A stretch of 64,000 bases of DNA from a virus, in IMG/VR virus record IMGVR_UViG_3300020724_000005; one strand, 5' to 3'. Below the pieces are notes generated by a model. The model saw only the letters and a list, made by a program, of their open reading frames with translations. It was not told the origin of the DNA and did not search any database. Positions 1 through 61,772 of this stretch are shown piece after piece (position 1 is the first letter of the stretch; the number at the start of each line of letters is the position of its first letter). The translations under genes and the position numbers were made by a program.

Positions 1-172
1 AATCGAGCTGTGACCAGAGCTGTAAATTGAGCTGTGAACCGAGCTGTGAACCGAGCTGTGACCAGAGCTGTGAATTGAGCTGTGACCTGAGCTGTGACCT
101 GAGCTGTGAACCGAGCTGTGAATAGAGCTGTGAATAGAGCTGTGAATTGAGCTGTGAATCGAGCTGTGAATT
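1..172. repeat. 12-bp tandem repeat array A (GAGCTGTGAnnn), 14 full units plus a partial unit running off the window start
   Basis: Direct reading: units at 5-16, 17-28 ... 161-172. Variation is almost entirely in the last 3 nt of each unit (ACC/ATC/CCA/ATT/CCT/ATA). Confidence 0.95.
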
Positions 173-2675: not shown

Positions 2676-2797
2676 AAAATAAAAGTGGCTCAGTCAAGTG
2701 AAGGAGCTAGGAACATCCAACACTCTATGAGCCAATGAGTCTATTATAGATAATTATTCCTAGTAATTTTCTATCTATAATAAATATCTGACTTTTA
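2676..2797 (-). promoter_or_regulatory. structured HE leader, copy A (P1 hairpin + P2/P2a hairpin + kissing pair)
   Basis: P1 TATTATAGATA 2742-2752 / TATCTATAATA 2772-2782. P2 TGGCTCA 2686-2692 / TGAGCCA 2728-2734. L1 TTCCTAG 2757-2763 is complementary to CTAGGAA 2707-2713. Confidence 0.6.
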
Positions 2798-3175: not shown

Positions 3176-3264
3176 GTTATTTTTTTATTTTATTGTAGTG
3201 TAAAATTAGCTAAAAGTTTTGCTTCTCCGTAATTTATCTTCTAAGTTATAAATATATTATCATC

Positions 3265-3306
3265 TAAAATAAAAGACCCACTAGATTTTTAGGCCCAGTG
3301 GGTCTT
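3265..3306 (-). terminator. intrinsic terminator-like hairpin
   Basis: Perfect 10-bp stem AAGACCCACT 3273-3282 / AGTGGGTCTT 3297-3306 with a 14-nt loop, followed on the minus strand by TTATTTTA. It lies 20 nt after the stop of ORF 3326..3604. Confidence 0.6.
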
Positions 3307-13467: not shown

Positions 13468-14250
13468 TTAGTTTATTTTATTTAGTTTACAATTATCAAA
13501 GTGGTATCTTTTCATATTTTGAATACTTCCTATTTTATCGCAGTAGGGGCATTCTATCTTTTTTTTAGGAATGCCTTTTGTAGCAGAACTAACAGCATCT
13601 TTAAATTCCTGAGAATGCTTTTTTCCTGTATGAGATAATCTTATTTTTTCTTTATGATCTTCTGTTAATTTTTTACCTAAACAATAAGAATTCCCCTTAT
13701 TAATAGATCTCATTAATTCAATCCACTCTTTAGATTTTTTTTCTCCCTTTTTAGAAATTCTATTAGCAAATCCAATTTTTTTCTTAGTTTCTTCAGATAT
13801 AGGATGACCTTTATGTTTATTTTTTCCAGTAATTATTTTACAATTATCAAAATGGTATCTTCTCATTGCTATATATCCTCCGACTTTATTACAATGAGGA
13901 CATTCAATTTTTCTTGTATTTTTTTCTACCATATTTTTAATTGATTCTATTGATTGTTTCAAACCTATTCCACCCTCTCCACCATCAGTTAAATTACATA
14001 AAGTACCCTCATTCAGATCTTTACGACCATATAGCTTTATGAATTCAACTTCTTTAGCACAAGCCTCTTCCCAAGTAAGATTATCAAGTATTATTTCTAC
14101 TTCATAGCCAAATTTAGATATATTACGCCAATGTTTAGTCCTATTATGAATAGAATATGCTCTTTTATACAAACCTTCAGTATCTGATCCTATTCCAATA
14201 TAAAAAGGTTCATTTTTGTCTAATCTTATATGTCTATAGAGATATGCCAT
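13468..14250 (-). CDS. GIY-YIG homing endonuclease with two CPxC..HFDNC zinc-finger modules
   Basis: YLYRH..FYIGIGS, CPHCNKVGG..YHFDNCK and CPYCDKIGS..YHFDNCK, plus NUMOD3-like repeats. Confidence 0.9.
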   Translation of the reverse strand: MAYLYRHIRLDKNEPFYIGIGSDTEGLYKRAYSIHNRTKHWRNISKFGYEVEIILDNLTWEEACAKEVEFIKLYGRKDLNEGTLCNLTDGGEGGIGLKQSIESIKNMVEKNTRKIECPHCNKVGGYIAMRRYHFDNCKIITGKNKHKGHPISEETKKKIGFANRISKKGEKKSKEWIELMRSINKGNSYCLGKKLTEDHKEKIRLSHTGKKHSQEFKDAVSSATKGIPKKKIECPYCDKIGSIQNMKRYHFDNCKLNKIN

Positions 14251-14286
14251 ATCTTTTTATTATAAATATCAGCATTTCTTTGTAGA

Positions 14287-19158: not shown

Positions 19159-19878
19159 TTAATAATATTTAAATCTTATTCCTTTTTTAATTAATAAATT
19201 CATTGTAGATTTGTGTATATGATTTATTATAGATGCAAGTTTAACAGAATCATATATTTCTCCGGTTTCTAAATTTATTACTTTTCTTCTATTATGCGCG
19301 GGTTTTCCAAAGTTATAATTTTTTTCTCCTTTTTTTAGATCACTCATTTTTTTTCTTGATTCTTCAGAATAATGTTTTCCTCTTTGAGCGTCACTTAATT
19401 TTTTCTTAGTCTCTTTAGATCGTTTTTTTCCTGTTAATGCTATACTTCTTTTTTTCTTAGTTTTTTCAGAACATGGTCCATTAGAAATTCCTTTATGAGA
19501 GATGCTAATTTTTCTTTTGTGATCTTCTGTTAATTTTTTTCCTTTATGAGTTTTACTTATAAGTCTTTTTCTTTCTTCTGTAAGTATAGACCCAAGCGCT
19601 CCATCTCCTCCATCTGTCATATTAACTAATGTCCCTTTTTTTAAATCTGCTCTGCCATAAAATATAATCCAAAATTTTTCTTTTTCACAAGATTCTTCCC
19701 AAGTTAACCATTCTTCTGAGATTATTTCTACTCTATAATCAGTAAGATTTACTATATTATGCCAGTATTTATTTCTATTCTTTTTTGTATGCGCTCTTTT
19801 ATAATTTTTATCTGATCCTATCCCGATATAGAAAACTTCATTCTTATCTAGTCTAATATGTCTATATATGTATGCCAT
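19159..19878 (-). CDS. GIY-YIG homing endonuclease
   Basis: Start moved to MAYIYRH, which sits in the CTTTTATTTTATG context shared by the six leader-bearing HE genes. YIYRH..FYIGIGS plus NUMOD3 repeats. Confidence 0.9.
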   Translation of the reverse strand: MAYIYRHIRLDKNEVFYIGIGSDKNYKRAHTKKNRNKYWHNIVNLTDYRVEIISEEWLTWEESCEKEKFWIIFYGRADLKKGTLVNMTDGGDGALGSILTEERKRLISKTHKGKKLTEDHKRKISISHKGISNGPCSEKTKKKRSIALTGKKRSKETKKKLSDAQRGKHYSEESRKKMSDLKKGEKNYNFGKPAHNRRKVINLETGEIYDSVKLASIINHIHKSTMNLLIKKGIRFKYY

Positions 19879-19997
19879 AAAATAAAAGTGGTCCAAAAAA
19901 TCTTCAGAGCTACGACCTTCTGAGATTGAATGGACCAATAAGTTTATTATAGATTACGTGTCGTAGTCGTAATATAATCTATAATAAATATCCAGCT
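19879..19997 (-). promoter_or_regulatory. structured HE leader, copy B
   Basis: P1 14 bp, 19943-19956 / 19975-19988. P2 TGGTCCA 19889-19895 / TGGACCA 19931-19937. L1 GTCGTAG 19960-19966 is complementary to CTACGAC 19910-19916. Confidence 0.6.
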
Positions 19998-21753: not shown

Positions 21754-21809
21754 AAAGTATTTTATAATAAATATGCATAGATTTTAGATTTGGTTATAGT
21801 AATCATAAA

Positions 21810-22451: not shown

Positions 22452-22854
22452 CGTGTTGGGAAATTTCTATGAATTGTTTTATGAAGTCTATACCGTCTGT
22501 CTTCCTGTATTGCTCTAGGTAAAGTACGCGTTTTATACCGGACTGTAGTAGTAGTTTTGCACAGTCGACACATGGGCTGAGAGTAAGATACAATGTAGAT
22601 CCATCAACTGCATAACCAGATCTTGCCGCTTTAAGTATTGCTCCCATTTCAGCATGTACAACTTCAAGAACTGTTAATCCATTTCTTTCACAGCAGTTAT
22701 TCATTCCAGCTGGGGTGCCATTATATGACATACTAATAATATTACCATCTTTTACCAAAATAGCGCCGACTTTAGCTCTTTCGCACTTAGAAAGAGTTGA
22801 TATTTCTTTTGCTATATTAATGTATACCTGATCTAGTTGTTTTTGTGTGGGCAT
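22441..22854 (-). CDS. dCMP deaminase
   Basis: VHAEMGAI and LSPCVDCAKLL (HAE and PCxxC zinc motifs). Confidence 0.9.
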   Translation of the reverse strand: MPTQKQLDQVYINIAKEISTLSKCERAKVGAILVKDGNIISMSYNGTPAGMNNCCERNGLTVLEVVHAEMGAILKAARSGYAVDGSTLYLTLSPCVDCAKLLLQSGIKRVLYLEQYRKTDGIDFIKQFIEISQHDEI

Positions 22855-23393
22855 TTTCTACCTTTTATATAACCATCTGGAATTGGATCTCCATCTTTTA
22901 TTAATATACTACTATTTTCATTATAATACCACTGTTTTTTGGTATATTTTCTTGGTAATTTTGAAATTCTTTGAAGGTGTCCAGATTCAGCATTTTTTTT
23001 ACCTTGAACATGTCCTCCTTTTTTTCTAACTTCTTTTAATATTTCTGGATCAAAGAATGAATTAATCTTATTTTTTCTGCAAAATTCAGCTGATTTTTTG
23101 CCGGTTTCTTTTGGATTCATCAACAATCTAATTTTTAACATCCATCCAGATTGAGCGTTTTTCTCACCTTGCTTTTTGCCATTAATGGAACGAATTTTAT
23201 TTATTGCCTCTTCTACTGGTATTTGTCCGCATAAACACTTCCACGCAATATAATCATATTGATTTTTATTTTTTTCCCACAATAATCTATGTTCTTCAGC
23301 GTGCTCTGACAATGTAACTAATTTTATATTGCTTAGATCATCTGTACTTCCAGAGTGTCTTGGGACGATATGGTGTTTATATAATTTTTCCAT
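22833..23393 (-). CDS. HNH homing endonuclease
   Basis: HHIVPRHSG..DDLSNIKLVTLSEHAEEH. Preceded by leader copy C. Confidence 0.85.
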   Translation of the reverse strand: MEKLYKHHIVPRHSGSTDDLSNIKLVTLSEHAEEHRLLWEKNKNQYDYIAWKCLCGQIPVEEAINKIRSINGKKQGEKNAQSGWMLKIRLLMNPKETGKKSAEFCRKNKINSFFDPEILKEVRKKGGHVQGKKNAESGHLQRISKLPRKYTKKQWYYNENSSILIKDGDPIPDGYIKGRKCPHKNN

Positions 23394-23509
23394 AAAATAA
23401 AAAGACCTAAAAAACTAAAGGATATCCGACATCACAATAGATTAATAGGTCAATAAGTTTATTATAGATAGTCGAGTCGGATTCGATTATTATCTATAAT
23501 AAATATAAT
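23394..23509 (-). promoter_or_regulatory. structured HE leader, copy C
   Basis: P1 23458-23470 / 23491-23503. P2 GACCTA 23404-23409 / TAGGTC 23446-23451. L1 GTCGGAT 23476-23482 is complementary to ATCCGAC 23424-23430. Confidence 0.6.
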
Positions 23510-25780: not shown

Positions 25781-26650
25781 TTACATCATTCCTCCCATAC
25801 CTTGAAGTCCATCTCCTGAGTTCTCTTCTTTTTTTGTATATTTCCAAATATATCCATAACAACTTTTTCTCTTATTAGAACAGACTGACGATATATGACT
25901 ATTATTTATTTTATAATATCTACGAATATCAGCAATACTATCCCAATTTTTAATAAACTCTCCATTTAATTTATATTGAGAAATTGGCCTTGATCTAGCT
26001 GATAATTTCCCTATTCTCCCAAACATAGGATTATTCTCTGCTATTCTTTTAGATGATGGATGATCTGCTCCTCTTTTACCAAACATGCCGTTTTTTTCCC
26101 CACTCTGCCCCTTTCCAAAATTTCCATGTTTACCATCCTTTATTAACTTAGCCATTTTATCTTTTCTCTCTTGTGTCCAAGAATCTTTAATTTTCTGTTT
26201 ACCTACATCAGACATCTTAGAGCCTTTAATAATTTTACTAACGTGATCTTTTCTTTCTTGAGTCCATGATAATTTTAAAATCTCTCTATTTTTTATAGAT
26301 TTATTTGGATGATTATCACCAGAAAACATCTTAATAAAAAGATCTCTTCTTTCTTGAGTCCATGGACTCCCTCCTCCATCACCACTCTCTAATTTAAGAT
26401 TAGCCCACTCTTTAGATTCTACAATATTAAATAATATAGAATAATATTCTCCTATCTTTTTAAGATCTTCTTTATCTTCAGTTTTGTGTAATATCCAAGT
26501 CTCAATATCTTTATTTGTAAAATTATGAAATTTAATATGATTTAACCACCTACTACCTGACCCTTTATATTTATATGGATCTTTTATAGTTTTTCCTAAA
26601 TATAGTAAACCAAGGGGGCTTCTTTTAACATAAATGTATATTAGTTTCAT
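25781..26650 (-). CDS. GIY-YIG-like homing endonuclease
   Basis: Start moved to MKLIYIYV (conserved ATG context). IYIYVKRSPLGLLYLGKT, three WTQER.D repeats, and an HTH-like C-terminus. Confidence 0.85.
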   Translation of the reverse strand: MKLIYIYVKRSPLGLLYLGKTIKDPYKYKGSGSRWLNHIKFHNFTNKDIETWILHKTEDKEDLKKIGEYYSILFNIVESKEWANLKLESGDGGGSPWTQERRDLFIKMFSGDNHPNKSIKNREILKLSWTQERKDHVSKIIKGSKMSDVGKQKIKDSWTQERKDKMAKLIKDGKHGNFGKGQSGEKNGMFGKRGADHPSSKRIAENNPMFGRIGKLSARSRPISQYKLNGEFIKNWDSIADIRRYYKINNSHISSVCSNKRKSCYGYIWKYTKKEENSGDGLQGMGGMM

Positions 26651-26770
26651 AAAATAAAAAGGTCCTATAAAAATACCAGCTCCGTAATAGCTAATAATTC
26701 TATGGACCAATAAGTTTTATTATAGATAAATGATTACGGCACTTTTCTATCTATAATAAATATCTATATT
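26651..26770 (-). promoter_or_regulatory. structured HE leader, copy D
   Basis: P1 26716-26728 / 26748-26760. P2 GGTCC 26661-26665 / GGACC 26704-26708. P2a AGCT/AGCT. L1 ATTACGG 26733-26739 is complementary to CCGTAAT 26692-26698. Confidence 0.6.
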
Positions 26771-28432
26771 TTACATTCCTAAATTCATTCCACCCAAAGA
26801 ATTTTCTGAGTCTTCTTGTTCCTTTTTAGATTTAATAGATAAAACCACCGATTCAACAGTCAAAACTGTACCGGCGACTCCGCTAGCATTCTTGATCGAA
26901 GACGTTACCACCTTTGTAGGATCCAAAAGCCCTGCTGCTATGCCATTGACTATGCACTTGTTCTTCGCATCATACGCAGTGAACTGGTCGTCTTTCTGGT
27001 TTATGCTGTGCAAGATCTCATACCAGTTGTCCATGCCTGCGTTTGAGAGTATCCTCTTGAAAGGCTCATGGCACGCCTCTTTGACTATCTTGAACCCGAT
27101 CTTCTCGTTCTCTTTCCAGTCCAGAGTCTTGCTGTTCATCGCTATGATCGCCTTGATCAAAGCCACACCGCCACCAGGAAGTATGCCATCTGCCAGTGCC
27201 GCCTTTGTTGCAAGCAATGCGTCTTCTACCCTGTCTTTCTTCTCCCTCATTTCGATCTCAGAGTTGCCTCCTACGTTGATGATGGCCACTCCGCCTATGA
27301 GCTTTCCAAGTCGTTCTTGCAGCTTCTCCTTCTCGAAGAAAGACTGAGCTTTGTCTATCTGATCTTTGATCTCCAGAGACCTTGCTTGTATCGTCTCTGC
27401 GTCTCCTTTGCCATCTACCATCGTCGTGTCTTCCTTGCTTATTGTAGCCAACCTTGATTTTCCTAAGAACTTATCCATGTCTTGGGGCGTTATCTTTTCA
27501 AGTTTGTGCCCTTTGCTCTTTGACATTACCGTTCCGCCAGTCAGTATCGCCATGTCCTCAAGAAGCAGCGTACGGCGATCACCGAAGTCTGGGGCTTTCA
27601 CCGCACACACCTTTACTACGCCTCTCATCTTGTTGACGATCATCAACGCAAGCGCCTCGTCTCCGTAGTCTTCTGCTATGATCAGTATGGACTTGTTCTC
27701 TGAGTTTGCTTTTTGCAAGAACGGTATGATCTCTGCTGCTGAATTTATCCTGCCGTCGAACAGCATGATGTAGCAGTCTTCGAGGATAGCGGTCATAGTA
27801 GTGTTGTTTGTCACGAAGTACGGGCTCTTGTATCCCCTGTCGAACTGCATGCCTTCTACCACTTCTAGCGTAGTCTCTCCTGTCTTTGATTCTTCTATCG
27901 TGATCAGACCTTCGCGACCTACTTTGTCTATTGCTGCAGAGATCAGCTCTCCTACCTCAGTGTCATTGTTGCCTGATATGGTCGCAACCTGCTTGATCTG
28001 CTCTTCTGTGCTCACGTCTACCGAGAACTTCTTCAGCTCTTCGATGACCATTGCTACTGCCTTGTCTATGCCAGCCTTGACCTCTACCGCATTGGTGCCT
28101 TGGCGGATCTCTCTCATTCCCTCTTGGATCATCTTTGTCGCGAGAAGAGTCGAAGTTGTTGTGCCGTCTCCAGCTTCGTTCGCTGATTTAATTGATACCT
28201 GCTTTACTAATTGAGCGCCGATATTCTCAATTTCATCTTCTAATTTATGGAAATTTTTTGCGACGGAAACTCCATCTTTAGAAATTTTAATTTCTCCAGT
28301 AGTAGAATCTACCAGTATTACATTTCTTCCGCCGGGTCCTAATGTTGAAGATACAGTCATATTTAGTTTTTCAATACCAACAAGAAGTTTTTCTTTTAGT
28401 TCTTGACCTGAAAGACTTTGTGTTTTACTCAT
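26771..28432 (-). CDS. groL: GroEL-type chaperonin (Cpn60)
   Basis: 553 aa. GPGGRNV, AGDGTTTSTLLA, GGGVALI and a C-terminal GGMNLGM tail. Confidence 0.95.
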   Translation of the reverse strand: MSKTQSLSGQELKEKLLVGIEKLNMTVSSTLGPGGRNVILVDSTTGEIKISKDGVSVAKNFHKLEDEIENIGAQLVKQVSIKSANEAGDGTTTSTLLATKMIQEGMREIRQGTNAVEVKAGIDKAVAMVIEELKKFSVDVSTEEQIKQVATISGNNDTEVGELISAAIDKVGREGLITIEESKTGETTLEVVEGMQFDRGYKSPYFVTNNTTMTAILEDCYIMLFDGRINSAAEIIPFLQKANSENKSILIIAEDYGDEALALMIVNKMRGVVKVCAVKAPDFGDRRTLLLEDMAILTGGTVMSKSKGHKLEKITPQDMDKFLGKSRLATISKEDTTMVDGKGDAETIQARSLEIKDQIDKAQSFFEKEKLQERLGKLIGGVAIINVGGNSEIEMREKKDRVEDALLATKAALADGILPGGGVALIKAIIAMNSKTLDWKENEKIGFKIVKEACHEPFKRILSNAGMDNWYEILHSINQKDDQFTAYDAKNKCIVNGIAAGLLDPTKVVTSSIKNASGVAGTVLTVESVVLSIKSKKEQEDSENSLGGMNLGM

Positions 28433-30581: not shown

Positions 30582-30811
30582 ATTCTTGTTATTAATTCAT
30601 GTCTATCAACTTTTTCATTGTATCGTAGAGTTGGCCATAAGCTGCTCATCATTTCATCATCACACATTATCTCCGAAGCAACTTCTCTGTCTATCCAAAT
30701 TCTATCGATAGCATATCCACAAGTATTACTGAGAACTAAACTTATACCATATTTTCTCCAGTAAGATTCTGTTATGATGAGTATTGTATATTTTCCTATT
30801 TTCTTAATCAT
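30578..30811 (-). CDS. hypothetical protein (77 aa)
   Basis: ORF track. Overlapping start/stop chain with its neighbours. Confidence 0.55.
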   Translation of the reverse strand: MIKKIGKYTILIITESYWRKYGISLVLSNTCGYAIDRIWIDREVASEIMCDDEMMSSLWPTLRYNEKVDRHELITRI

Positions 30812-31782
30812 TGTGGTTTGTGTTTATAGTTATTGTATTTCCATGTATATCCGCCAGCTTTTTTTCTTTTACCAATACAACATTTTTGAATATTGGTAGA
30901 ACATATATTTAGACTTTTTGCGGCTGTTGCCATGCATGTCCAAAGTTTTATATAATTTCCTTCTAAGTCAGATTGAATTATCTTAATCGCATTATGATTA
31001 TTATCACCAGTAGATCTTAATCGTAATTTTTCACGTTTTTCTGGGCTCTTATTCGGATTTTTATCTCCTATAAAATTTAGTCTACTTTTAAAAGTATTAT
31101 CTTCTTTTTTTATATATGATTCTTGATCGAAGTATTTCCATCTATAATTTCCAGAAATAGATCCATTCTTGATAGCAGCACATATATTAGAATTTTTAAG
31201 ATTTACAAATAAAGCAGCTTGTTTTAAAGAATCAAAATTTCTTATTTCATCTAAAGTGCTTTTATCTAGCATTATCACTTTTCTAGTATAATACTTTTTA
31301 TTTTTATTAGTCTCCTTTATTTTATCTAAACCCTCTTTTGTAATTATATGCTTTTTTCTCATCTTTAATTTCTGCTCTTCAGTTCTTTTTTTGCCTCTTA
31401 AGGCTAATCCAACTTTTGCAGAATGCTCTAGTGATTTTTTTACGCCACTTAAAGCTTTAGATATTGCTTTAGAGTGAGCTAATCTCGCTTCTTCATAACA
31501 TCTAGAAGATATTACTATCCAATGACACTTAGGAGTAGATCCTCTTCCTCTACACATTCTCCAAAAAGAAAATGCTCTAGCTGGTATTGATGGATTAATT
31601 CTATAAAGTAACCAATGAGCGATAAAATGTTCTCTGGCTGTTAGTTTAACTAAATTAGAATTATCATCTAATCCACCTTCTGATTTAGGTATAATATGAT
31701 GTTGTTCATAATATGGTAATATTTTACTATCTCTATTCTTTCCTTTTTCTATTAATAAATTATAATGTTTTTGATAATTCAT
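30808..31782 (-). CDS. HNH homing endonuclease
   Basis: EQHHIIPKSEGGLDDNSNLVKLTAREHFIAHW, NUMOD3-like repeats, and an HTH-like C-terminus. Confidence 0.85.
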   Translation of the reverse strand: MNYQKHYNLLIEKGKNRDSKILPYYEQHHIIPKSEGGLDDNSNLVKLTAREHFIAHWLLYRINPSIPARAFSFWRMCRGRGSTPKCHWIVISSRCYEEARLAHSKAISKALSGVKKSLEHSAKVGLALRGKKRTEEQKLKMRKKHIITKEGLDKIKETNKNKKYYTRKVIMLDKSTLDEIRNFDSLKQAALFVNLKNSNICAAIKNGSISGNYRWKYFDQESYIKKEDNTFKSRLNFIGDKNPNKSPEKREKLRLRSTGDNNHNAIKIIQSDLEGNYIKLWTCMATAAKSLNICSTNIQKCCIGKRKKAGGYTWKYNNYKHKPQ

Positions 31783-34565: not shown

Positions 34566-35381
34566 CTAAAGCTCTGTGCTCAGCCTTCTGAGGAACCTCC
34601 TGTATAGCCCCTCGTCAGTTGACCATGCTTTGATCTTGACCAGCTCAGAGTAAAAACTGTCTCTTGCAGACTCAAGCCTGTCTTTTATCCAAGGTCCTCT
34701 TAGAAAGAGGAAAGGAACTGCCGTGTTCTTGTACTCGTTGTATACCTCATCGTAGCTCTTGGTCTTTATGTCAGAGAGTGCCCTAAACAGCTGGCTTTTG
34801 ACCGCAGCCATAAGCTTCTTGTCCTTGTCTTTCTTTGCAAGCCCAGAGGCTATTGTGTTTATCAGCGTAGAGGTGTGTGCATCGAACTCAGCTGGTGAAT
34901 TTAGATGTGATATGAGGTCCTTTTCGTACTGCTCTATGTCTTCTGGGCTTGCATTCTTGCCTGGCGCTTTCGGTGCTCCAACTCCCAGCTTTGCATCTAG
35001 ATCTGGATCGAACGCTTTAGGATCTATTGCATGTATGAGCTCATGCTCTATGTTCACCGTAAAATCATGCTCGTCTGTAAGCTTTGCAAGGTTTGCCATG
35101 ACAGCCATGTTCTGCTGGTCCATCCTAGCGTATGCTCCATCCTTTGGATCGTTATACAGACCTAAGCTGATCGATGTCAGGTTGCCTCTGCGGTCTTTCA
35201 TGTTGAACATGTTCTTGAAGCTCATAGGAACATATGGATCTTGCTTGTAGCTTTTAGGCGACTTCTTCTTGAGAGAGTCTAGGTTGTTCTCTATGTAGGA
35301 GAACGCAGAACTAGCCTTTGACAGCTGGTCCTGCGGTATCTTTACTATCTTCTCTGTAAGCAGATCTATGAGCTTTATCAT
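34566..35381 (-). CDS. hypothetical protein with HExxH metallopeptidase-like motif
   Basis: TVNIEHELIHAIDP. Confidence 0.8.
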   Translation of the reverse strand: MIKLIDLLTEKIVKIPQDQLSKASSAFSYIENNLDSLKKKSPKSYKQDPYVPMSFKNMFNMKDRRGNLTSISLGLYNDPKDGAYARMDQQNMAVMANLAKLTDEHDFTVNIEHELIHAIDPKAFDPDLDAKLGVGAPKAPGKNASPEDIEQYEKDLISHLNSPAEFDAHTSTLINTIASGLAKKDKDKKLMAAVKSQLFRALSDIKTKSYDEVYNEYKNTAVPFLFLRGPWIKDRLESARDSFYSELVKIKAWSTDEGLYRRFLRRLSTEL

Positions 35382-35396
35382 ATGTTATAAATATCA

Positions 35397-36143
35397 TTAA
35401 ACCTTGCTTATTATTATTTTAAAACCTTCATAATTTGACTTTTCTATTTTAGAAGATGTCAATATTATCTCTCTTATTCCAGATCTGATTTTATTCATAT
35501 CTCCAAAATTAATCTTTAACTCTTTCTTTGCTGTTGTTATTTTATCAAATTTCTTTATTAGATCTCCATCTTGATTATATAAATATGCAAATCCTAACCA
35601 TTTATAATTCTTATCTCCTTTTTTACATTCACTCCATTTTTTCCTATATTCTGGATTACTAAGTATATCTTTCATTTTATCTGAGAATTTTTTTAGATTC
35701 TCTTCATTTTTCCAATATGCATCCACTCCATTTTTTACGCTAGTTCTATACTCATCGTCTTTCCATAAATTTTTAGAAATATCAACAAATTTATGTCGTA
35801 AAATATCTTTATTAGTATTTGATGCATTTCGTAATTTTTCTCTATGCTCTTCTTTATTTGGATGATTTGTAAAATTATCTCCACCATCCCCTCCTGTAGA
35901 AATATTATAACCAATTTCTGGATTTGTAGAATTATAATAGCTGATCCAATATTGCTCTTTTATATTTAATTCCTCAATAGAAGAGCTATGATCTAATACG
36001 CCCTTTTTGAACTTATCTCGACCATAGCTCTTTATAGCATCTTTTATTTTTACTCCAGATCCAAGATAGCTTGGATCATTTTTTGTGTCTTTACCTATAT
36101 AAATTTTTCCTGATTCTAAATTTGTAGTCTTATAAATTATCAT
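35397..36143 (-). CDS. GIY-YIG homing endonuclease
   Basis: IIYKTTNLESGKIYIGKD. AT-rich. Lies directly downstream of the RNR C-terminal fragment. Confidence 0.85.
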   Translation of the reverse strand: MIIYKTTNLESGKIYIGKDTKNDPSYLGSGVKIKDAIKSYGRDKFKKGVLDHSSSIEELNIKEQYWISYYNSTNPEIGYNISTGGDGGDNFTNHPNKEEHREKLRNASNTNKDILRHKFVDISKNLWKDDEYRTSVKNGVDAYWKNEENLKKFSDKMKDILSNPEYRKKWSECKKGDKNYKWLGFAYLYNQDGDLIKKFDKITTAKKELKINFGDMNKIRSGIREIILTSSKIEKSNYEGFKIIISKV

Positions 36144-36188: not shown

Positions 36189-36872
36189 TTATATATTAAT
36201 TTCACAACTATTTCCAGCACACGCAACTTGGTCCTTAAGGTCTGTGTTGTCTTCTGCCTCTACCACCAAGCTCAGATCTATGTTAGAAAGCGACTCCATC
36301 ATTTTTTCGTAAGTCTCTTTATCGCAGTCTTGGAAAGGTGCCTGAACGTAGGTGTGGTCTGAGAATGGCAGCACTGAAAGCCCGTTGTAGCAAGTCCTGT
36401 TCTCCCACATCCACTCTCCTACAGTGTCCCACTCTCCGTCCTTTATAGAGATCGTGGCCGAGATGTTGTGTGTGTTCTGTCCTGTCTTGTGTCCTGGTTT
36501 GATCCAGTTGTTGTAGAAGTATTTTACCCTCTCGAGCAGATCTATCGCTGACTCTGTCCTCAGTATCGAACCCTCTGGCGCTTTCTGTGGGACCGAGATG
36601 ACTGCCGTGCTGTGGGGCTTGAAGTACTCGTCCTGTATCAGCTCTGGGTGGTATATGCTCAGGTACGTGTATATGGCCTCGTTCTTGCCAACTCTTATGT
36701 TTCTGATGTAGTACTCGCTGTGCCACGCATGTATGCCAGAAGATGTGCCCAGGACTAGAGAGGAGGTATTATGAACCACAGATTTATTTTTTAGTTGATA
36801 TGAATGAGTATTATCTACTTCTATGTCAACAGTAAATTTATTTCCAGACTTTGTTATTTTTTTAATTTTCAT
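36189..36872 (-). CDS. nrdJ: class II ribonucleotide reductase, C-terminal fragment fused to a C-intein
   Basis: The first 35 aa (MKIKKITKSGNKFTVDIEVDNTHSYQLKNKSVVHN) look like intein blocks F and G. The extein resumes at TSSLVLGTSSG. Confidence 0.9.
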   Translation of the reverse strand: MKIKKITKSGNKFTVDIEVDNTHSYQLKNKSVVHNTSSLVLGTSSGIHAWHSEYYIRNIRVGKNEAIYTYLSIYHPELIQDEYFKPHSTAVISVPQKAPEGSILRTESAIDLLERVKYFYNNWIKPGHKTGQNTHNISATISIKDGEWDTVGEWMWENRTCYNGLSVLPFSDHTYVQAPFQDCDKETYEKMMESLSNIDLSLVVEAEDNTDLKDQVACAGNSCEINI

Positions 36873-38007
36873 AATATTTAATTAATTCTATTATATTTTC
36901 TAATACTAATTGCTTATTTTTTAAATAATTTGATTCTTTAACTCTAATTAAATTTAATCCCATATTAGCATATATCTTATCCTTTAATCTATCTCTCTCT
37001 ATATTATTAGGTAAAGAATGCCAATAATCTCCATCAAATTCAATTACAGTATTTCCTATTTTAATGTCTGGTACTATACACTTTATTTGATAATCATTCT
37101 GGTTTAGATTTATAAAATAGGGTTTTGTTATTGGGTAACCAAAAAATACCTCTTTTTGTTTATTGTTTAATAAATCATATAGTGATAAATTAAAATCTTT
37201 TTCTATATTTGAACTAAAATCTGGAAAATAACTAATTTTCTTTTTTATCATATCAGAATATAAATTCCGACCCTCTACTTCTCCAAATTTATCTATATAA
37301 TATTCTAATCTTCCAGATTTTCCTTTACTATAACATAATTCTTTATATCTATTTAAGCCTTCAATTTTTCCAAATTTAGAGATATAATAGTCTTTAGTCT
37401 GTGAATATGCTATTTTTTTATTAGCCTCATCATATTTTTCCTTTCCTATATTATCACCATACTTTTTTATATAATAATCTAACCCTCTTGATTGATTCTT
37501 ATTAACAAACTGTTTAGCTTCTAATTCACTTACTCCATAATATTTCATTACAGATTTATAATCTCTACAAGAATACCCACTGTCTATTTTCTTTTTATAT
37601 CTTAATCTACCCTCTTTTTCTCCATATTTTTTTATCATGCTTTCCAAGTCAGTCTTTGAATTAATAGAGTGTTTTGCTTTAATGTCTTTTATTTCATCAT
37701 CACTATATCCATTTAATTTTAAAGCATTTATACTAACTGAAAGTTTACTATTTTTTTCTAAATATTCCTCTCTACCTAACTCCTCCCCGTATCTTTTAAT
37801 GAATCCATTTAGGGTATTTTTAAACTTATCATTTTCTATTTTTTGTTTATATTTAAATAAGCCTAACTCTTTTCCGTATTTAAACTGTAATACTTTTAAA
37901 GAAGACCCTCGCATTAAATTTGCACATCTCTTGTTGCCCCCCTCTTCTCCAAGTAGATGAATCAGTAGTCGTCTCAGTCTATTAATCTTTTTTATATCTT
38001 TTTTCAC
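36862..38007 (-). CDS. free-standing homing endonuclease, Vsr/DUF559-like PD-(D/E)XK domain
   Basis: Six K(Y/F)G.E.G...Y repeats. C-terminal VIEFDGDYWH...RD..KD. GTG start at 38007. AT-rich. Confidence 0.8.
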   Translation of the reverse strand: MKKDIKKINRLRRLLIHLLGEEGGNKRCANLMRGSSLKVLQFKYGKELGLFKYKQKIENDKFKNTLNGFIKRYGEELGREEYLEKNSKLSVSINALKLNGYSDDEIKDIKAKHSINSKTDLESMIKKYGEKEGRLRYKKKIDSGYSCRDYKSVMKYYGVSELEAKQFVNKNQSRGLDYYIKKYGDNIGKEKYDEANKKIAYSQTKDYYISKFGKIEGLNRYKELCYSKGKSGRLEYYIDKFGEVEGRNLYSDMIKKKISYFPDFSSNIEKDFNLSLYDLLNNKQKEVFFGYPITKPYFINLNQNDYQIKCIVPDIKIGNTVIEFDGDYWHSLPNNIERDRLKDKIYANMGLNLIRVKESNYLKNKQLVLENIIELIKYYEN

Positions 38008-38008
38008 A

Positions 38009-38058
38009 ATTAAGCCTTTTATTATAAATATCTGATTAATTACAATAATAGGCTTAAT
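38009..38058 (-). promoter_or_regulatory. hairpin enclosing the ATATTTAT motif just upstream of the GTG start
   Basis: Stem ATTAAGCC 38009-38016 / GGCTTAAT 38051-38058. The loop contains TTTTATTATAAATATCTG. Confidence 0.45.
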
Positions 38059-38071
38059 AGTAAAAATTAAT

Positions 38072-39682
38072 CTAATAATTTATAATATCATCATCATCCT
38101 TCAATTCGTCTGCTCTAACCCACCCCCTATTTTTAGTTAAAAACCTATGATTTGCTGTAACTGTAACTACCAAACCATCTTCAAACTCCACATCAAACGT
38201 TTCTTCTACTCCATTAATGTATAATTTATTAATTTGTTGCCATTCATCATTTAAATCTTTGACTTTTATATCCTCTGTTACTTCTAAAAATAGCTTTTCG
38301 TTATTTTTAAAATCAGATAAGTCATATCCATTGATTTTAAAAATATCCTCTAATGAGAGAATACCTTTATTTGTTATTATTTCAGTTTCTGGTATCATGC
38401 ACCCACTCGGTTTTATTGTAGTGCAACGGGCTGCTGCGTTTATCCCTACCGCTTTCGCTACTGCTGCGTTCGTCTCTTTCACTATGAGAGCGGCCTTTTT
38501 AAGATCCAGCTTCTGAGCAACTCCTGACCCTATTCCAGTCATTCCTACTCCTATTAGTGCTTCTTTCTCTGTAGTCTTCTGCCATATTGGTCTGAGATAG
38601 TGAAAGTTAGTGTATCCTGCTTGTAAAGTCCCTATTATCGCTGCTGCATTTACTCTGTCATTAAGATCTTCTTGGTCTACTACGTCTGAAACATTTACCT
38701 CGCAAAGGTTGCAAAATTGATATGGTCTTAGTGCAATTTCCATACAAGGATTACTTCCTAAATCTTTATCATTACTAAGAAATATACCCGGTTCTCCTGA
38801 TCCCGAGTTCTCAATCTTCTTCCAGAGATCCATAAAGAATTCCTTTGTAAGTCTATTCCTTAAAAGTACAGCCGAGTTATTCGCTCTACCCCTTTGCGGA
38901 TTTAATTCCCACCATTGACCAGTCTTACAAGAGATCATATCCTCATCGTCAGCTGAGAATAGTGATACTAATGCCGCTCTCCTTATACCCCCAGCAAGTA
39001 CTGCATCAGCTATGTGGCAGACCATGTCGTGAACCTCTATCGAGCTGAGTTTATCTCCATCCTCTTTCTGGCTGAGTATTCCATCTAACATTAGTAAGCA
39101 CTCTTTCAGTGGTTGAGGACCTGGAGCTTTACCGCCAGAAGTAACTAGCATTGCTCCTTTTGGACGTATGTCAGAGAAGTCAAAGTTAATCGATGATCCA
39201 CCTCTGAAATAGGACTTGATCAGGGCTTTGACTGCGTCTGCCCAACCCTCTATCGAGTCTCCTATCAGGAACCTTGTGTGCTTCTTTGGGTTCGGTTTCC
39301 TTATCTCTGGCAGCTTCTCAACGTGGTGCTTCTGTACAGAGAAACCTACTCCCGTGCCACCAAGCAGCAGGAACATCGTCTCAGAGAAAGCGTGTATGTC
39401 GTCTATAGGAAGGTACGCGCAGTTATACACTCTGTTAGGAGATATCTCTATCGACTTTCCACCGAACTGCAGGCTCCTCATAGAAGGAAGCACCTTTTTA
39501 TCATATACGAATTCATAAGCCCAGTCTATCTCAGCTTGCATATTGGGATATTTCTTGAGATGCATTGCCTTGTTTCTGTCTACCAATTCTTCCCAAGACT
39601 CTCTCTTCTGTAGTTCTGGGAGGTATTTGGAATATTTTAAGTGTACTGTAATATCTGATAATATTTCCTGTGAGATATTCAT
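38072..39682 (-). CDS. nrdJ: class II ribonucleotide reductase, N-terminal fragment fused to an N-intein
   Basis: GGTGVGFS, GGIRRAA, SNPCMEI and TTIKPSG, followed by the 109-aa intein N-half (Cys1, TxxH block B) and a stop. Confidence 0.9.
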   Translation of the reverse strand: MNISQEILSDITVHLKYSKYLPELQKRESWEELVDRNKAMHLKKYPNMQAEIDWAYEFVYDKKVLPSMRSLQFGGKSIEISPNRVYNCAYLPIDDIHAFSETMFLLLGGTGVGFSVQKHHVEKLPEIRKPNPKKHTRFLIGDSIEGWADAVKALIKSYFRGGSSINFDFSDIRPKGAMLVTSGGKAPGPQPLKECLLMLDGILSQKEDGDKLSSIEVHDMVCHIADAVLAGGIRRAALVSLFSADDEDMISCKTGQWWELNPQRGRANNSAVLLRNRLTKEFFMDLWKKIENSGSGEPGIFLSNDKDLGSNPCMEIALRPYQFCNLCEVNVSDVVDQEDLNDRVNAAAIIGTLQAGYTNFHYLRPIWQKTTEKEALIGVGMTGIGSGVAQKLDLKKAALIVKETNAAVAKAVGINAAARCTTIKPSGCMIPETEIITNKGILSLEDIFKINGYDLSDFKNNEKLFLEVTEDIKVKDLNDEWQQINKLYINGVEETFDVEFEDGLVVTVTANHRFLTKNRGWVRADELKDDDDIINY

Positions 39683-41407: not shown

Positions 41408-42127
41408 TTATATATTTGGTTTTTTATATTTGCACTTATCAAAATGCCACTGAGTCATTCCGTTATTTCCTCCAATTTTATTACAATGCGGACATTGTAT
41501 TTTTGGATTTTTTATTCCTAATCTATTAGTATTTCCTATTTTAGATATGCTCAATTTTCTTTTATGTTCTTCTGATTTAGATTTTCCCTTAAGAGCTCTG
41601 CTAATATTTGCCTTCTCTAATTCTGATTTTACTCTATTTTTTTGACCTTTAGAAATTGATTCTCTATGTTGTAAAGATAAACATATCCCTAATTTAGATT
41701 TTCTTATATTTAATTTAGTTTCTTCTGATCTTACTTTTCCCGTATTCGATTCTTTCATCTTTTTTTTAGTATCATCAGAAACTAAATGGCCTTTTCTGGA
41801 TAATCTATATAATCGTTTTGTTTCTTCAGAATGTTTAAAACCAAATTGACCTTGTCCACCATCTGTCATATTAACTAAAGGTCCCAATTTAAGATCTGCT
41901 CTTCCATAGAATATAATCCAAAATTTTTCTTTTTCACAGGCTTCTTCCCAAGTTAACCATTCTTCTGACATAATTTCTACTTTATATTCTGTAAGATTAA
42001 TCACATTATTCCAATGAATATTTCTGTTCTTTTTTGAATAAGATCTTTTATAGTTTTTATCTGATCCTATTCCTATATAAAAAACCTCATTCTTGTCTAG
42101 TCTTATATGACGATACACATATGCCAT
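41408..42127 (-). CDS. GIY-YIG homing endonuclease with CPHC..HFDKC zinc-finger tail
   Basis: Start moved to MAYVYRH. FYIGIGS, NUMOD3 repeats, and C-terminal CPHCNKIGG..WHFDKCK. Confidence 0.9.
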   Translation of the reverse strand: MAYVYRHIRLDKNEVFYIGIGSDKNYKRSYSKKNRNIHWNNVINLTEYKVEIMSEEWLTWEEACEKEKFWIIFYGRADLKLGPLVNMTDGGQGQFGFKHSEETKRLYRLSRKGHLVSDDTKKKMKESNTGKVRSEETKLNIRKSKLGICLSLQHRESISKGQKNRVKSELEKANISRALKGKSKSEEHKRKLSISKIGNTNRLGIKNPKIQCPHCNKIGGNNGMTQWHFDKCKYKKPNI

Positions 42128-42236
42128 AAAATAAAAATGGTCCAAAGTGACAAAGAGCCTGCATGCTCTCTATCTCAAAGGACCAATAAGTTCTATTATA
42201 GATAACTCATGCAGGAGCTTCTATCTATAATAAATA
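42128..42236 (-). promoter_or_regulatory. structured HE leader, copy E
   Basis: P1 42194-42204 / 42222-42232. P2 TGGTCC 42138-42143 / GGACCA 42180-42185. P2a AGAG/CTCT. L1 CATGCAGG 42208-42215 is complementary to CCTGCATG 42158-42165. Confidence 0.6.
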
Positions 42237-43133
42237 TCAGGAAATACTTGCTAAATACTTAAAGTTTGTGTATAGCCACGAAGGTAGGTTTGTGATGCTC
42301 TGTCCCAGTTGATCTTCGTTATACATCTCTGTAAACTCTGTTGGATAGTAGTCCTTCTTTGGGTTGCCCATCATCTGGTCTATCTCCTCTTGTGCCTCTG
42401 CTGGTATGTTAGGCTCGTCTAGGTCCATGAGCTTCTTGTTGATCTCTAGCTGGCTTCTGAAGTCGTAGATCTTTTTGAGCATTGCAACATCGCCGTCCTT
42501 GCACTTCTCTATGACATGCTCTAGACTGATAGTAGCACTTTTTCCTAACTCTGGAAAGTGTTTAAGCAAAGTCTTGATGCCTAATCCCTTTACCCCAGGA
42601 ACGTTGTCTCCTTTGTCGCCAAGCAGCACCTTCTGGGTTAGAAAGTTGTGAGACGTCACTTCGTACTCGCTCAAGACGTCTTTTGGAGAATAGAACTTCT
42701 TCTTTGTAGGTGAGTATATGCTGATCCTGTCCGATGCAAGCTGAAGGTAATCTCGGTCCGAAGACATGATGGTCACCTCTTTTCCTATGCGCTTTGCTAT
42801 GTATCCTATGACATCGTCTGCCTCTATCTTGTCTATCGATAGCAGATCTATGGGAAGACATTTGAGGTAGTCCACGAGCCTCAGAAGCTGGTTCTTGATG
42901 GCATCAGACTCCTCTTCTTGGGAATCGAACATGTCCCAGTTTGTGATTCTCTTTATACCCCTATTTGCTTTGTACTCAGGATAGAGGTAACGCTTATTTG
43001 TTGAGCTACCGCGGCCATCAAATACTACTATGACACGTGTTGGTCTTATCAGTCTCATCCCATATGCCATCGACTTGAGAAACCCAGTTAGAGCTCCTAT
43101 GTGCTGTCCAGCTGGGTTCACGTGCTGGATCAT
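42237..43133 (-). CDS. 5-prime-3-prime exonuclease / flap endonuclease (T4 RNase H-like)
   Basis: YPEYKANR, ADDVIGYIA, SSDRDYLQL and LGDKGDNVPGVKGLGIKT. Confidence 0.9.
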   Translation of the reverse strand: MIQHVNPAGQHIGALTGFLKSMAYGMRLIRPTRVIVVFDGRGSSTNKRYLYPEYKANRGIKRITNWDMFDSQEEESDAIKNQLLRLVDYLKCLPIDLLSIDKIEADDVIGYIAKRIGKEVTIMSSDRDYLQLASDRISIYSPTKKKFYSPKDVLSEYEVTSHNFLTQKVLLGDKGDNVPGVKGLGIKTLLKHFPELGKSATISLEHVIEKCKDGDVAMLKKIYDFRSQLEINKKLMDLDEPNIPAEAQEEIDQMMGNPKKDYYPTEFTEMYNEDQLGQSITNLPSWLYTNFKYLASIS

Positions 43134-43279: not shown

Positions 43280-43843
43280 TTAATTTTTATATTTACAATT
43301 ATCAAAATGCCACTGGATCATATTACTCTTATTTGCTATTTTTTTACAATGCGGACATTGGGCCAAAGGCCTATTTTTAGCAGATTCACTTTGTGCAATT
43401 TTAGTTTTTTCTGATGTTTTTAATTCTTTATTCCACGTATTCATTCCAATGAAAAATGATCCTGAATTTACTTTATGTGGAAATTTTTTATCTTTATTCC
43501 ATGGAATTCTATTTTTAATACTTTCAATATAGCATTGTTTAGCTTCTACTGATATTCTTATACTATGTCTACCTGTATTTTTATCTTTAATGCACATTAA
43601 ATGAAAAGCATATGTTAATTTTTTATTTTCAGGAAAACTTCTATGTAATAACCAGTGCGCTAATATATGCTCTCTAATAGTTAATAAAACTATATTTTTA
43701 TTGTTTGTATTTCTTCTATCACCAATTCCTCCCAAACATATTGGCACTATGTGATGAGACTCGTAATAAACCTCTTTATTTTTTGTTCTTTTCTCCAATT
43801 TACATTTGCAGACTAATCTATTATATATTTTTAAGTAATCCAT
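43280..43843 (-). CDS. HNH homing endonuclease with CPHC..HFDNC zinc-finger tail
   Basis: Start moved to MDYLKIY. ESHHIVPICLGG....N..NIVLLTIREHILAHW. C-terminal CPHCKKIAN..WHFDNCK. Confidence 0.85.
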   Translation of the reverse strand: MDYLKIYNRLVCKCKLEKRTKNKEVYYESHHIVPICLGGIGDRRNTNNKNIVLLTIREHILAHWLLHRSFPENKKLTYAFHLMCIKDKNTGRHSIRISVEAKQCYIESIKNRIPWNKDKKFPHKVNSGSFFIGMNTWNKELKTSEKTKIAQSESAKNRPLAQCPHCKKIANKSNMIQWHFDNCKYKN

Positions 43844-43963
43844 AAAATAAAATGGACTCATTGAAGTCAAAGGTCGGGCAATGACCAATGATTCTAGAGT
43901 CCAATAAGTTTATTATAGATAGTTAATTGCCCTAACTTTCTATCTATAATAAATACTTGATTT
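43844..43963 (-). promoter_or_regulatory. structured HE leader, copy F
   Basis: P1 14 bp, 43909-43922 / 43940-43953. P2 TGGACTC 43853-43859 / GAGTCCA 43897-43903. P2a GGTC/GACC. L1 ATTGCCC 43926-43932 is complementary to GGGCAAT 43876-43882. Confidence 0.6.
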
Positions 43964-57474: not shown

Positions 57475-57496
57475 ATGAAATAAATATCAAGCAAAG

Positions 57497-58600: not shown

Positions 58601-58641
58601 AAAAAGAAAAAAGCTCCTTTTGAGTGGAGCTTCTTTTTTTA
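58601..58641 (-). terminator. intrinsic (bidirectional-type) terminator after the tail tube gene
   Basis: Stem AAGCTCC 58611-58617 / GGAGCTT 58626-58632 with an 8-nt loop. It has an A-run on one side and a T-run on the other, so the minus-strand RNA ends in a stem plus UUUUUCUUUUU. Confidence 0.7.
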
Positions 58642-61746: not shown

Positions 61747-61772
61747 AACGTGATTTGATTATAAATATGTGA

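Follow-up and report, generated by a model that had tools for sequence, protein, structure and literature searches.

Among the closest described counterparts of the element considered here are the leaders of homing endonuclease genes in T4-family phages (I-TevI, -II and -III, segB, Aeh1 mobE, and seg43 of phage 25), in which a structured RNA lies immediately upstream of the endonuclease open reading frame (ORF), the hairpin carries a phage promoter in its 5′ half, so that the fold of a read-through RNA is not that of an RNA initiated at this promoter, and the cassette is embedded in phage operons (PMC2988022). Here we describe a leader that resembles these in position, in its probable promoter and predicted isoforms, and in its operon context, and that occurs six times on the minus strand of a 64-kb stretch of viral DNA (64,000 nucleotides; IMG/VR record IMGVR_UViG_3300020724_000005), referred to below as the window. 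In T4, one hairpin sequesters the Shine-Dalgarno sequence; the leaders of the window lack such a sequence and leave the start region unpaired. They also differ in having two hairpins with a 7-bp kiss and a U-run after hairpin 2, and in that one leader serves several endonuclease families, while a sister version (family 2, as opposed to family 1 for the window leaders and their relatives) precedes non-endonuclease genes. The structural interpretation, two hairpins joined by kissing loops, is strongly supported.

Contacts between hairpin loops have several precedents. In the RNA I/RNA II pair of ColE1, 7-nt loops are fully paired in a kissing helix and the loop sequence is the specificity determinant, and in pT181-type plasmids a kiss controls a leader terminator. 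The leaders share with these systems, and with pIP501 attenuation, fully paired 7-nt loops and a specificity set by the loops. However, the plasmid kiss is intermolecular, between sense and antisense RNA, and progresses to longer duplexes, whereas the leaders carry both loops on one sense RNA and have flanking stems that are not mutually complementary. In the lysine riboswitch (L2-L3) and the enterovirus 3′ untranslated region (X-Y), adjacent hairpins lie side by side with about six Watson-Crick loop-loop pairs and hinged stems, and the AGUA/GAA internal loop of family 2 is of the loop-E type, as in P2 of the riboswitch. Unlike these RNAs, the leaders have no conserved ligand-binding core, their kiss sequence is free to vary and they stand in a phage promoter-proximal context. 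The c4 immunity RNAs of P1 and P7 follow the same logic as the CI RNA of P4 (C4 in Rfam). In the P4 system, as in the leaders, a loop of the sense leader RNA is complementary to another segment of the same leader and specificity is provided by covarying short complements; the pairing is tied to premature termination, as it may be here (PMC4825925). P4 CI and P1 c4 nevertheless show no sequence or covariance-model similarity to the leaders, in which both partners are hairpin loops within about 60 nt and which belong to Bacteroidota phages.

No described family that accounts for the leaders was found. An earlier note on this DNA, made from its letters alone, had not recognized the design as an existing RNA family, and searches of Rfam 15 agree with it: there was no match in the whole window at the gathering threshold, copy A returned only sub-threshold junk at E <= 10, eight family-2 loci gave only tRNAs at the gathering threshold, and one of the family-2 loci (L349) gave sub-threshold sRNA and snoRNA noise at E <= 10. 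Full-text literature searches for an earlier description of the leader found none. A known small ribozyme or riboswitch was considered and rejected, as there is no Rfam match and no conserved core beyond the AU-rich stems, and in family 1 the sequence inside hairpin 2 varies freely.

Each leader is made up of the motif ATATTTAT in the 5′ arm of stem P1, an AGAA bulge, stem P1b, loop L1, the AU-rich 3′ arm with a linker, hairpin 2, a U-run and the ATG. Lower P1 is a sequence-invariant helix of 12 bp, and the conserved 4-nt 5′ bulge (AGAA) separates it from P1b, which changes across leaders from A-U to U-A and from G-C to A-U and also contains G.U pairs. Hairpin 2 spans about 49 nt: above a GC-rich P2 of 6-7 bp come one or two internal loops and then P2a, of about 4 bp, capped by the 7-nt loop L2. 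Copy A occupies 2676-2788, counted from the promoter motif to the base before the ATG, and matches the covariance model at 108.9 bits. Its motif ATATTTAT lies at 2780-2787 inside the P1 5′ arm; the lower P1 arms are TTTATTATAGAT (2773-2784) and ATCTATAATAGA (2740-2751), the latter predicted to be single-stranded in the promoter-initiated transcript. L1 (CTAGGAA, 2757-2763) is closed by P1b (AATTA/TAATT), the linker and hairpin 2 fill 2686-2739, with P2 (TGGCTCA/TGAGCCA), inner stems and an L2 (TTCCTAG, 2707-2713) that is the complement of L1, and the U-rich tail CTTTTATTTT with the start codon takes up 2673-2685. The other five copies, all likewise on the minus strand, repeat this plan. Copy B (19879-19992) has its promoter motif at 19984-19991, L1 CTACGAC at 19960-19966 and L2 GTCGTAG at 19910-19916; copy C (23394-23507) has them at 23499-23506, 23476-23482 (ATCCGAC) and 23424-23430 (GTCGGAT), and copy D (26651-26764) at 26756-26763, 26733-26739 (CCGTAAT) and 26682-26688 (ATTACGG). 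Copy E (42128-42238; motif 42230-42237) forms an 8-bp kiss between CCTGCATG (42208-42215) and CATGCAGG (42158-42165), and copy F (43844-43957) carries a variant motif, GTATTTAT, at 43949-43956 along with L1 GGGCAAT (43926-43932) and L2 ATTGCCC (43876-43882). Sequence shared by the six copies begins at the promoter motif.

The earlier note had placed six intergenic leaders at these sites and listed a complementary loop pair for each, including CCTGCATG/CATGCAGG in copy E; the six leaders and all six pairs are confirmed in the minus-strand reading, and the family-1 covariance model, R1, matches exactly these six in the window and otherwise only their opposite-strand palindromic shadows. Its description of L1 as a loop of 17-20 nt is not borne out, as L1 is a loop of 7 nt (8 nt in E, 9 nt in B) closed by the 5-bp P1b. 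L1 and L2 are therefore similar in size and fully paired together. Single-sequence folds of the six copies return P1, P2 and an inner hairpin with a predicted loop of 6-7 nt, with z-scores of -3.6 to -5.3.

The evidence for the loop-loop contact comes from relatives. IMG/VR and metagenome contigs were scanned by the P1 pattern and then by R1, which gave 55 matches and 40 distinct leaders including those of the window. Every full-length leader has a perfect 7-8 nt complement between L1 and L2, and about 15 different 7-mers are in use. A perfect complement of at least 7 nt between L1 and its cognate hairpin 2 is present in 31/31 distinct leaders from the window and metagenomes, as compared with 29/868 (3%) non-cognate L1/P2 combinations and 354/6200 shuffled L1s, which excludes the chance origin that had earlier been judged implausible from a rough estimate. 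In the six window copies, a loop pairs over 7-8 nt with its own partner and over at most 4 nt with that of any other copy, which makes the six loop pairs mutually orthogonal. As a MAFFT alignment of family 1 (A2) was out of register in hairpin 2, equal-length structural modules were extracted by script to give alignment A3, in which 95.7% of cells are paired against 31-37% in slide controls, and P1b, P2 and P2a covary as well. Six of the seven kiss pairs in A3 have changed on both sides, the invariant pair being the A at L1 position 6 with the U at L2 position 2. Kiss pairing in A3 is 100% Watson-Crick, with no G.U, a figure that is partly circular because the L1 and L2 columns were picked by complementarity; the independent tests are the cognate/non-cognate control and the structure-blind alignment of family 2. 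Together these three lines of evidence bear out the proposal of a folded sense-strand RNA with a covarying loop-loop contact and a covarying P2: the leaders have two stem-closed loops whose Watson-Crick complement is kept by compensatory change, as in an RNA kissing-loop complex.

Family 2 emerged among relatives of the endonuclease ORF behind copy B (ORF B). Two of them (L272 = L378 and L293 = L346) have leaders that differ in sequence but are arranged alike: ATATTTAT is again part of the 5′ arm of hairpin 1, and the loops, of 8 nt, have a 7-8-nt complement. The hairpin 2 core of this family, GGUGAGUAGAG-[L2]-CUCGAAAGCC, contains the loop-E-type AGUA/GAA internal loop and is followed by a U-run (U6-U8) and the ATG. 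A scan of viral contigs with the core found 56 loci and 44 distinct sequences (L344-L399, e.g., L349 5917-6046), 43 of which have a 7-8-nt L1/L2 complement, in about 14 codes; the exception, L385, begins downstream of hairpin 1. Bacteroidota lack Shine-Dalgarno sequences and have promoters of the form -33 TTTG / -7 TAnnTTTG, and most family-2 leaders lie 5-8 nt downstream of such a textbook promoter (TTTG-N19-TAtaTTTG). Five of them precede endonucleases, and most copies stand before non-endonuclease genes with products that start MAKNFPYFKF.., MRKAINFF.. or MERTKIIFCS.., so the design is not specific to homing endonucleases. In alignment A4, made with MAFFT without reference to structure, the kiss is 97.3% paired, six of seven pairs are doubly changed and there are no one-sided changes. 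Two U.G wobbles are conserved in P2 (one in 27/27 sequences, the other in 20/27), and these fit only the sense strand. The two families are architecturally equivalent on present comparison, with intermediates (L346, L378, L365, L381), although homology is not demonstrated and the family-2 covariance model, R2, finds no match in the window. The scan of bacterial-genome contigs with the family-2 core gave a single match, in Xylanibacter ruminicola, with no two-hairpin layout, no U-run and no R2 match, and so no evidence of bacterial or prophage copies. A third variant was seen in family-2 phage genomes (L398 1225-1391, L389 2735-2902, L348 3610-3777, L391 4794-4961), with the family-2 promoter, a similar hairpin 1 and a longer, branched hairpin 2 followed by a U-run; no convincing L1 complement was seen in it.

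The motif within the 5′ arm of P1 is a probable phage-specific promoter. On the minus strand, where every long ORF of the window is located, ATATTTAT has 24 sites, 23 of them intergenic, and 15 of them lie 5-31 nt upstream of start codons; its three plus-strand sites are all within coding sequence. The extended form (G/C)ATATTTAT(A/T)A is strand-specific and intergenic, and the motif stands before replication and structural genes alike (e.g., minus-strand sites at 14262-14269, 21767-21774, 35387-35394, 57480-57487 and 61761-61768). Since the P1 5′ arm holds ATATTTAT in five of the six window leaders and GTATTTAT in copy F, the arm does coincide with a real strand-specific intergenic motif, as had been noticed. 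In two genes (ending at 35381 and 57474) the ATG is exactly 5 nt after ATATTTAT, which suggests leaderless mRNAs, and because of these two genes the transcription start is predicted 6 nt downstream of the motif; in the leaders we infer this to be the A of AGATAG. An RNA initiated there would be without lower P1 and would keep a flush 5′-terminal hairpin (top of P1, P1b and L1). With the promoter inside the P1 5′ arm, two RNA isoforms are therefore expected: a read-through isoform with the full 17-19-bp hairpin 1 and a 5-nt linker, and a promoter-initiated isoform that starts with what is left of hairpin 1, its top, and in which the P1 3′ arm would become part of a free AU-rich spacer of 16-18 nt. 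The two isoforms may be gated differently.

Downstream of the kiss, hairpin 2 has the sequence features of an intrinsic terminator. Its mean predicted free energy is -19.4 kcal/mol, and at least 6 U are found in the 9 nt that follow it in 38/38 family-1 and 42/42 family-2 sequences, so that a stable GC-based hairpin is directly followed by a U-tract in 80/80 sequences. Upstream of the six leader ORFs, positions -13 to -1 contain 68% U and 14% A, and those of 68 other genes of the window contain 28% U and 49% A; as the leaderless endonuclease genes are ordinary and A-rich here, the U-run travels with hairpin 2 and not with the ORF. In family 2, the distance from U-run to ATG varies (about 9 to 45 nt or more) and the hairpin-plus-U-run unit is constant. 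A simple terminator scanner, the model of which is an uninterrupted stem with a 3-8-nt loop, did not list the leader sites, presumably because imperfect hairpins of about 49 nt do not fit it. The window has two clear intrinsic terminators on the minus strand (3273-3306 and 58607-58636), with 11-13-bp stems and a U-rich tail of the same kind as in the leaders (TTATTTTAGA). The first of these is followed by a ATATTTAT promoter at 3248-3255, the usual terminator-then-promoter order and the opposite of that in the leaders.

The leader probably controls expression of the gene that follows it. We tentatively favor a reading of its sequence in which it works as a promoter-proximal terminator or attenuator that the kiss modulates and to which the loop sequence gives a specificity code. 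Each copy would be the 5′ module of a mobile cassette composed of promoter, structured RNA leader and homing endonuclease ORF. The sense transcript would fold into hairpins 1 and 2 with a 7-bp Watson-Crick kissing helix between L1 and L2, hairpin 2 and its U-run would terminate transcription near the promoter, and the ORF would be expressed only from transcripts that read through, at a frequency set by the kiss. Possibly, the lower stem of hairpin 2 closes less readily if the kiss has already formed when the 3′ strand of this hairpin emerges. It can be speculated that such a co-transcriptional kiss closes a ring of hairpin 1, spacer and the 5′ strand of hairpin 2, and so hinders the winding of a 3′ strand that is still tethered to polymerase. 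The copy-specific loop code would prevent cross-pairing among the six leaders and with those of co-infecting relatives. Both termination at the U-run and the effect of the kiss on it are inferred from the letters of the leaders.

Several points weigh against this attenuator. The cassettes are within tightly packed arrays of replication genes (recA-like, exonuclease, DnaB, dCMP deaminase, PD-(D/E)XK nuclease), endonuclease-less relatives have no terminator at the cassette sites, and no ATATTTAT lies between the leaders and the downstream genes. A terminator here must be weak or relieved, because an efficient one would be polar on essential genes. Base pairing in the kiss is not in competition with the terminator stem, which leaves a steric or topological effect that is speculative, and U-runs are common in a genome of roughly 30% GC. 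The leader module is also dispensable, since three endonuclease genes of the window and most relatives of ORF B do without it and one decayed leader (L052) does without hairpin 1. Lastly, the distance between stem and ATG hardly varies in family 1 (7-12 nt), an observation that suits a role in translation initiation just as well.

Such a role would follow the T4 example: the two-hairpin structure of read-through RNA would abut the initiation region and block 30S loading, and RNA started inside P1, in which the missing lower stem would leave an AU-rich platform exposed on either side of P2, would be translated. Fixed P2-ATG spacing goes together with a conserved tail, and the P1 5′ arm contains the promoter motif in each of the six copies as well as in the family-2 leaders L346 and L378, which are associated with homing endonuclease genes. 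Translation initiation in Bacteroidota works without Shine-Dalgarno sequences and is dependent on unstructured leaders. Precedents exist in I-TevI, -II and -III, segB and Aeh1 mobE, and in the stable hairpin of phage 25 seg43, which lies just upstream of the ribosome-binding site without sequestering it (PMC2988022). The occlusion of the start codon that the analogy with T4 had implied finds no support, however. The start codon and the 12-13 nt upstream of it (the tail) are in no conserved helix, and when 35 leaders were folded by partition function, both at full length and cut at the predicted transcription start, positions -12 to +3 showed no consistent difference in accessibility. Pairing of the tail with the P1 3′ arm, its sole candidate partner, was considered and amounts to only -3.1 kcal/mol. 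The T4-type model thus fails in its defining feature, as the start region is not sequestered, and P2 abuts the tail in both isoforms. Furthermore, hairpin 1 of family 2 is mostly wholly downstream of the promoter and the ATG distance is variable there, so that the function shared by both families is not isoform-specific translation. On balance we regard translational gating as unlikely.

Alternatively, the leader may be a structural insulator or stability element that protects the 5′ end of the endonuclease mRNA, is processed by an RNase III-type enzyme so that the cassette is separated from the upstream message, or blocks ribosomes or Rho at the junction, without acting as a switch. The predicted promoter-initiated RNA of both families begins flush with a 5′-terminal hairpin, and P1, P1b, the kiss and hairpin 2 make a long quasi-continuous helix. 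The position of the cassettes, mid-operon and directly after upstream stop codons, also agrees with this. Insulation would leave the conserved U-run and the hypervariable code unexplained, and leaderless endonuclease cassettes occupy equivalent positions in the same genome, which makes this explanation unlikely.

The attenuator reading does assign a part to the code, and the loop sequences are hypervariable. In family 2, the four central kiss positions have entropies of 0.76-1.58 bits, against a value of 0 in the stem columns of hairpin 1, 0.11 in P2 and 0.46 in unpaired spacer (the loop-E and P2a columns are invariant as well, but these were fixed by the search pattern). Where two family-2 leaders are at least 97% identical in the rest of their sequence, 18% of L1 positions differ between them, against 1.6% of the other positions; the loop code therefore evolves faster than its surroundings, with the complement always kept. 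A bolder version of the attenuator, which we hold to be rather doubtful, is that L1/L2 is an addressable code under diversifying selection, that the co-transcriptional kiss decides terminator closure, and that the code separates self from non-self leaders among paralogous cassettes and co-infecting phages. In a related scenario a short RNA ending in the U-run would accumulate and act in trans, pairing by L1 or L2 with nascent leaders of the same code, from its own locus or from a co-infecting relative, and so regulating its own synthesis or excluding relatives. Such an RNA would be a sense-strand counterpart of the P4 CI and P1 c4 immunity RNAs or of the RNAs that control plasmid copy number. 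This would suit a kiss code that is hypervariable, always compensated and faster-evolving than unpaired spacer, and codes that are orthogonal within one genome, and the arrangement of promoter, RNA of roughly 100 nt and terminator-like end is that of a small RNA gene. P4 CI RNA is itself processed from the leader that it controls, and its pairing with complementary leader segments leads to premature termination (PMC4825925). The intramolecular kiss should nevertheless outcompete intermolecular pairing, neither C4 nor any other Rfam family matches, and orthogonality is equally expected from cis folding on polycistronic RNAs that carry several leaders. As the phage of the window also looks lytic, a role in immunity is not obvious, and we consider action in trans improbable.

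All six ORFs behind the leaders, encoded on the minus strand, match homing endonuclease families of PHROGs. ORF A (2028-2675, 215 aa) has the N-terminus MAYVYRH..FYIGIG, matches phrog_314 (E = 1.6e-22) and has weak Pfam matches to NUMOD3, the I-TevI DNA-binding domain and GIY-YIG. ORF B (19159-19878, 239 aa) and ORF E (41408-42127, 239 aa) match the same family (E = 1.3e-24 and 2.1e-27), ORF B with a NUMOD3 domain (E = 1.9e-14). ORF C (22833-23393, 186 aa) contains HHIVPRH..N..H and matches phrog_655 and Pfam HNH (E = 0.003), and ORF F (43280-43843, 187 aa) is of the HNH type (phrog_655, E = 6.3e-34). ORF D (25781-26650, 289 aa) starts MKLIYIYVK..LYLGKT, a type also found downstream of leaders in L009, L048, L054, L056 and L089, and has a weak match of its C-terminal part to phrog_20162 ("HNH endonuclease") and weak NUMOD1/NUMOD3 matches. 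An assignment of four GIY-YIG and two HNH enzymes, made earlier, is thus upheld as to homing endonucleases, and the split into classes rests on visible N-terminal motifs; Pfam matches across the six ORFs are to NUMOD and I-TevI DNA-binding domains, and those to catalytic domains are sub-threshold only. ORFs E (GIY-YIG type) and F (HNH type) have a common C-terminal motif, ..QWHFD.CKYK.. (41408-41480 and 43280-43330, minus strand), which indicates a putative DNA-binding or zinc-finger module swapped between catalytic families. The three leaderless endonuclease genes on the minus strand (13468-14250, 30808-31782 and 35397-36143; phrog_314 and phrog_655) lack a structured leader: ATATTTAT precedes their ATG by 11-12 nt, and the sequence before the ATG is ordinary and A-rich. 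Added to the six with leaders, they bring the number of endonuclease genes to at least nine in 64 kb.

The unit that is inserted is the whole leader plus the endonuclease gene. In three relatives without cassettes E and F (L184, L185, L188), the recA-like gene, exonuclease and dnaB are spaced 11-25 nt apart, and the same junctions in the window hold leader F with ORF F and leader E with ORF E. Around homologues of the 5′-3′ exonuclease, a leader is present at only 3/80 loci. With their PHROGs matches, their location between conserved genes and this absence from relatives, the six have the features of freestanding homing endonuclease cassettes. They are flanked by complete, distinct ORFs (recA-like, 5′-3′ exonuclease, DnaB, dCMP deaminase, PD-(D/E)XK nuclease, chaperonin and methyltransferase), and a split-gene or intron reading of the sites was rejected as these are complete separate genes. 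Among the 40 distinct leaders, 38 have an endonuclease-type ORF (GIY-YIG, HNH) next, of at least seven N-terminal types; the exceptions are L047, which has no ATG, and a leader with an unclassified Cys-rich ORF. Near-identical leaders (e.g., with the GGGCAAT code) stand before unrelated ORFs, even at one genomic site (L089 vs L030), and a single ORF type is found behind several different leaders. This shuffling among the 40 copies substantiates the view that the leader, rather than the ORF, is the conserved and portable unit.

Shuffling of this kind is known from the promoter-early stem-loop (PeSL) elements of T4-like phages, short repeated intergenic promoter/stem-loop modules that are scattered in one genome, flank mobile or variable ORFs and mediate modular exchange (PMC2839356, PMC4122927). 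The leaders likewise repeat six times in 42 kb, swap ORFs and have cassette boundaries that coincide with the leader. They differ from PeSLs in showing extensive compensatory change. To our knowledge, PeSLs are composite terminator/promoter motifs acting via DNA homology, and neither a tertiary RNA contact nor covariation is part of their description. If the leaders acted in the same way, the P1 palindrome and tail would be recombination or landing sites through which endonuclease ORFs are swapped, and the complementarity of the loops would either have arisen incidentally or matter in single-stranded DNA. Apart from the exchange of ORFs behind one leader, of leaders before one ORF type, and the PeSL precedent, the deletion of hairpin 1 in L052 is consistent with loss between two P1 arms. 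Recombination, however, needs sequence identity, not compensatory change that is confined to three stems and a pair of loops; read on the opposite strand, the invariant U.G wobbles would turn into A.C mismatches; and the leader is always in sense orientation between promoter and start codon. An element acting as DNA is therefore very unlikely, and the shuffling is more likely a consequence of conserved flanks than a selected function.

The window phage is, as judged from its DNA polymerase, an uncultured relative of large Flavobacterium myoviruses with Bacteroidota hosts: this protein is 53% identical to that of Flavobacterium phage vB_FspM_immuto, the closest sequenced relative (all others are distant), and a megablast search of 50,697 phage records with 5 kb of the window found no match at the DNA level. 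A blastn search of the same records, including immuto, with leader D also found nothing. The window is 5.7% non-coding. Directly upstream of leader D is a GroEL/Cpn60-type chaperonin gene (26771-28432, minus strand; Pfam Cpn60_TCP1, E = 2.4e-57). At 36189-39682 (minus strand) ribonucleotide reductase is encoded in pieces: a 536-aa N-terminal part ends in an intein-splicing domain and is followed by a 381-aa ORF with a REase_MTES_1575 nuclease domain and by a 227-aa ORF that matches the C-terminus of the reductase, and a GIY-YIG endonuclease gene adjoins it. The layout resembles the "fractured gene" (split-intein) arrangement (PMC2677866). At one end of the window (1-172 and 399-813) are arrays of about 14 and 34 copies of a 12-nt tandem repeat (GAGCTGTGAACC, 79-87% matches), which overlap small minus-strand ORFs and could be a coding 4-residue repeat or iterons.

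Taken as a whole, the leaders form an RNA family not described before, the self-complementary loop code of which is unusual and hypervariable, within the known classes of cis-regulatory leaders, kissing-loop RNAs and regulated endonuclease cassettes. They add to Bacteroidota phages a well-supported structured RNA family of about 80 distinct sequences in two sub-families, with a tertiary contact backed by covariation. Gene-expression signals in these phages, with no Shine-Dalgarno sequences and unusual promoters, are poorly known, and ATATTTAT is a candidate promoter consensus for an uncultured phage group. The freely reprogrammable 7-bp kiss, with its orthogonal variants, is a natural set of matched RNA-RNA pairs that could serve synthetic biology. 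For the phages themselves, the leaders mean that mobile endonuclease cassettes travel with a portable, probably regulatory RNA, and that this RNA and the enzyme are exchanged separately. Control of termination by the kiss, or its action in trans, would amount to a novel way for viruses to regulate by RNA or to recognize self; and should the code distinguish self from non-self, selfish endonuclease cassettes and early genes of Bacteroidota phages would carry a counterpart, made of sense RNA, to plasmid incompatibility or P4-type immunity.

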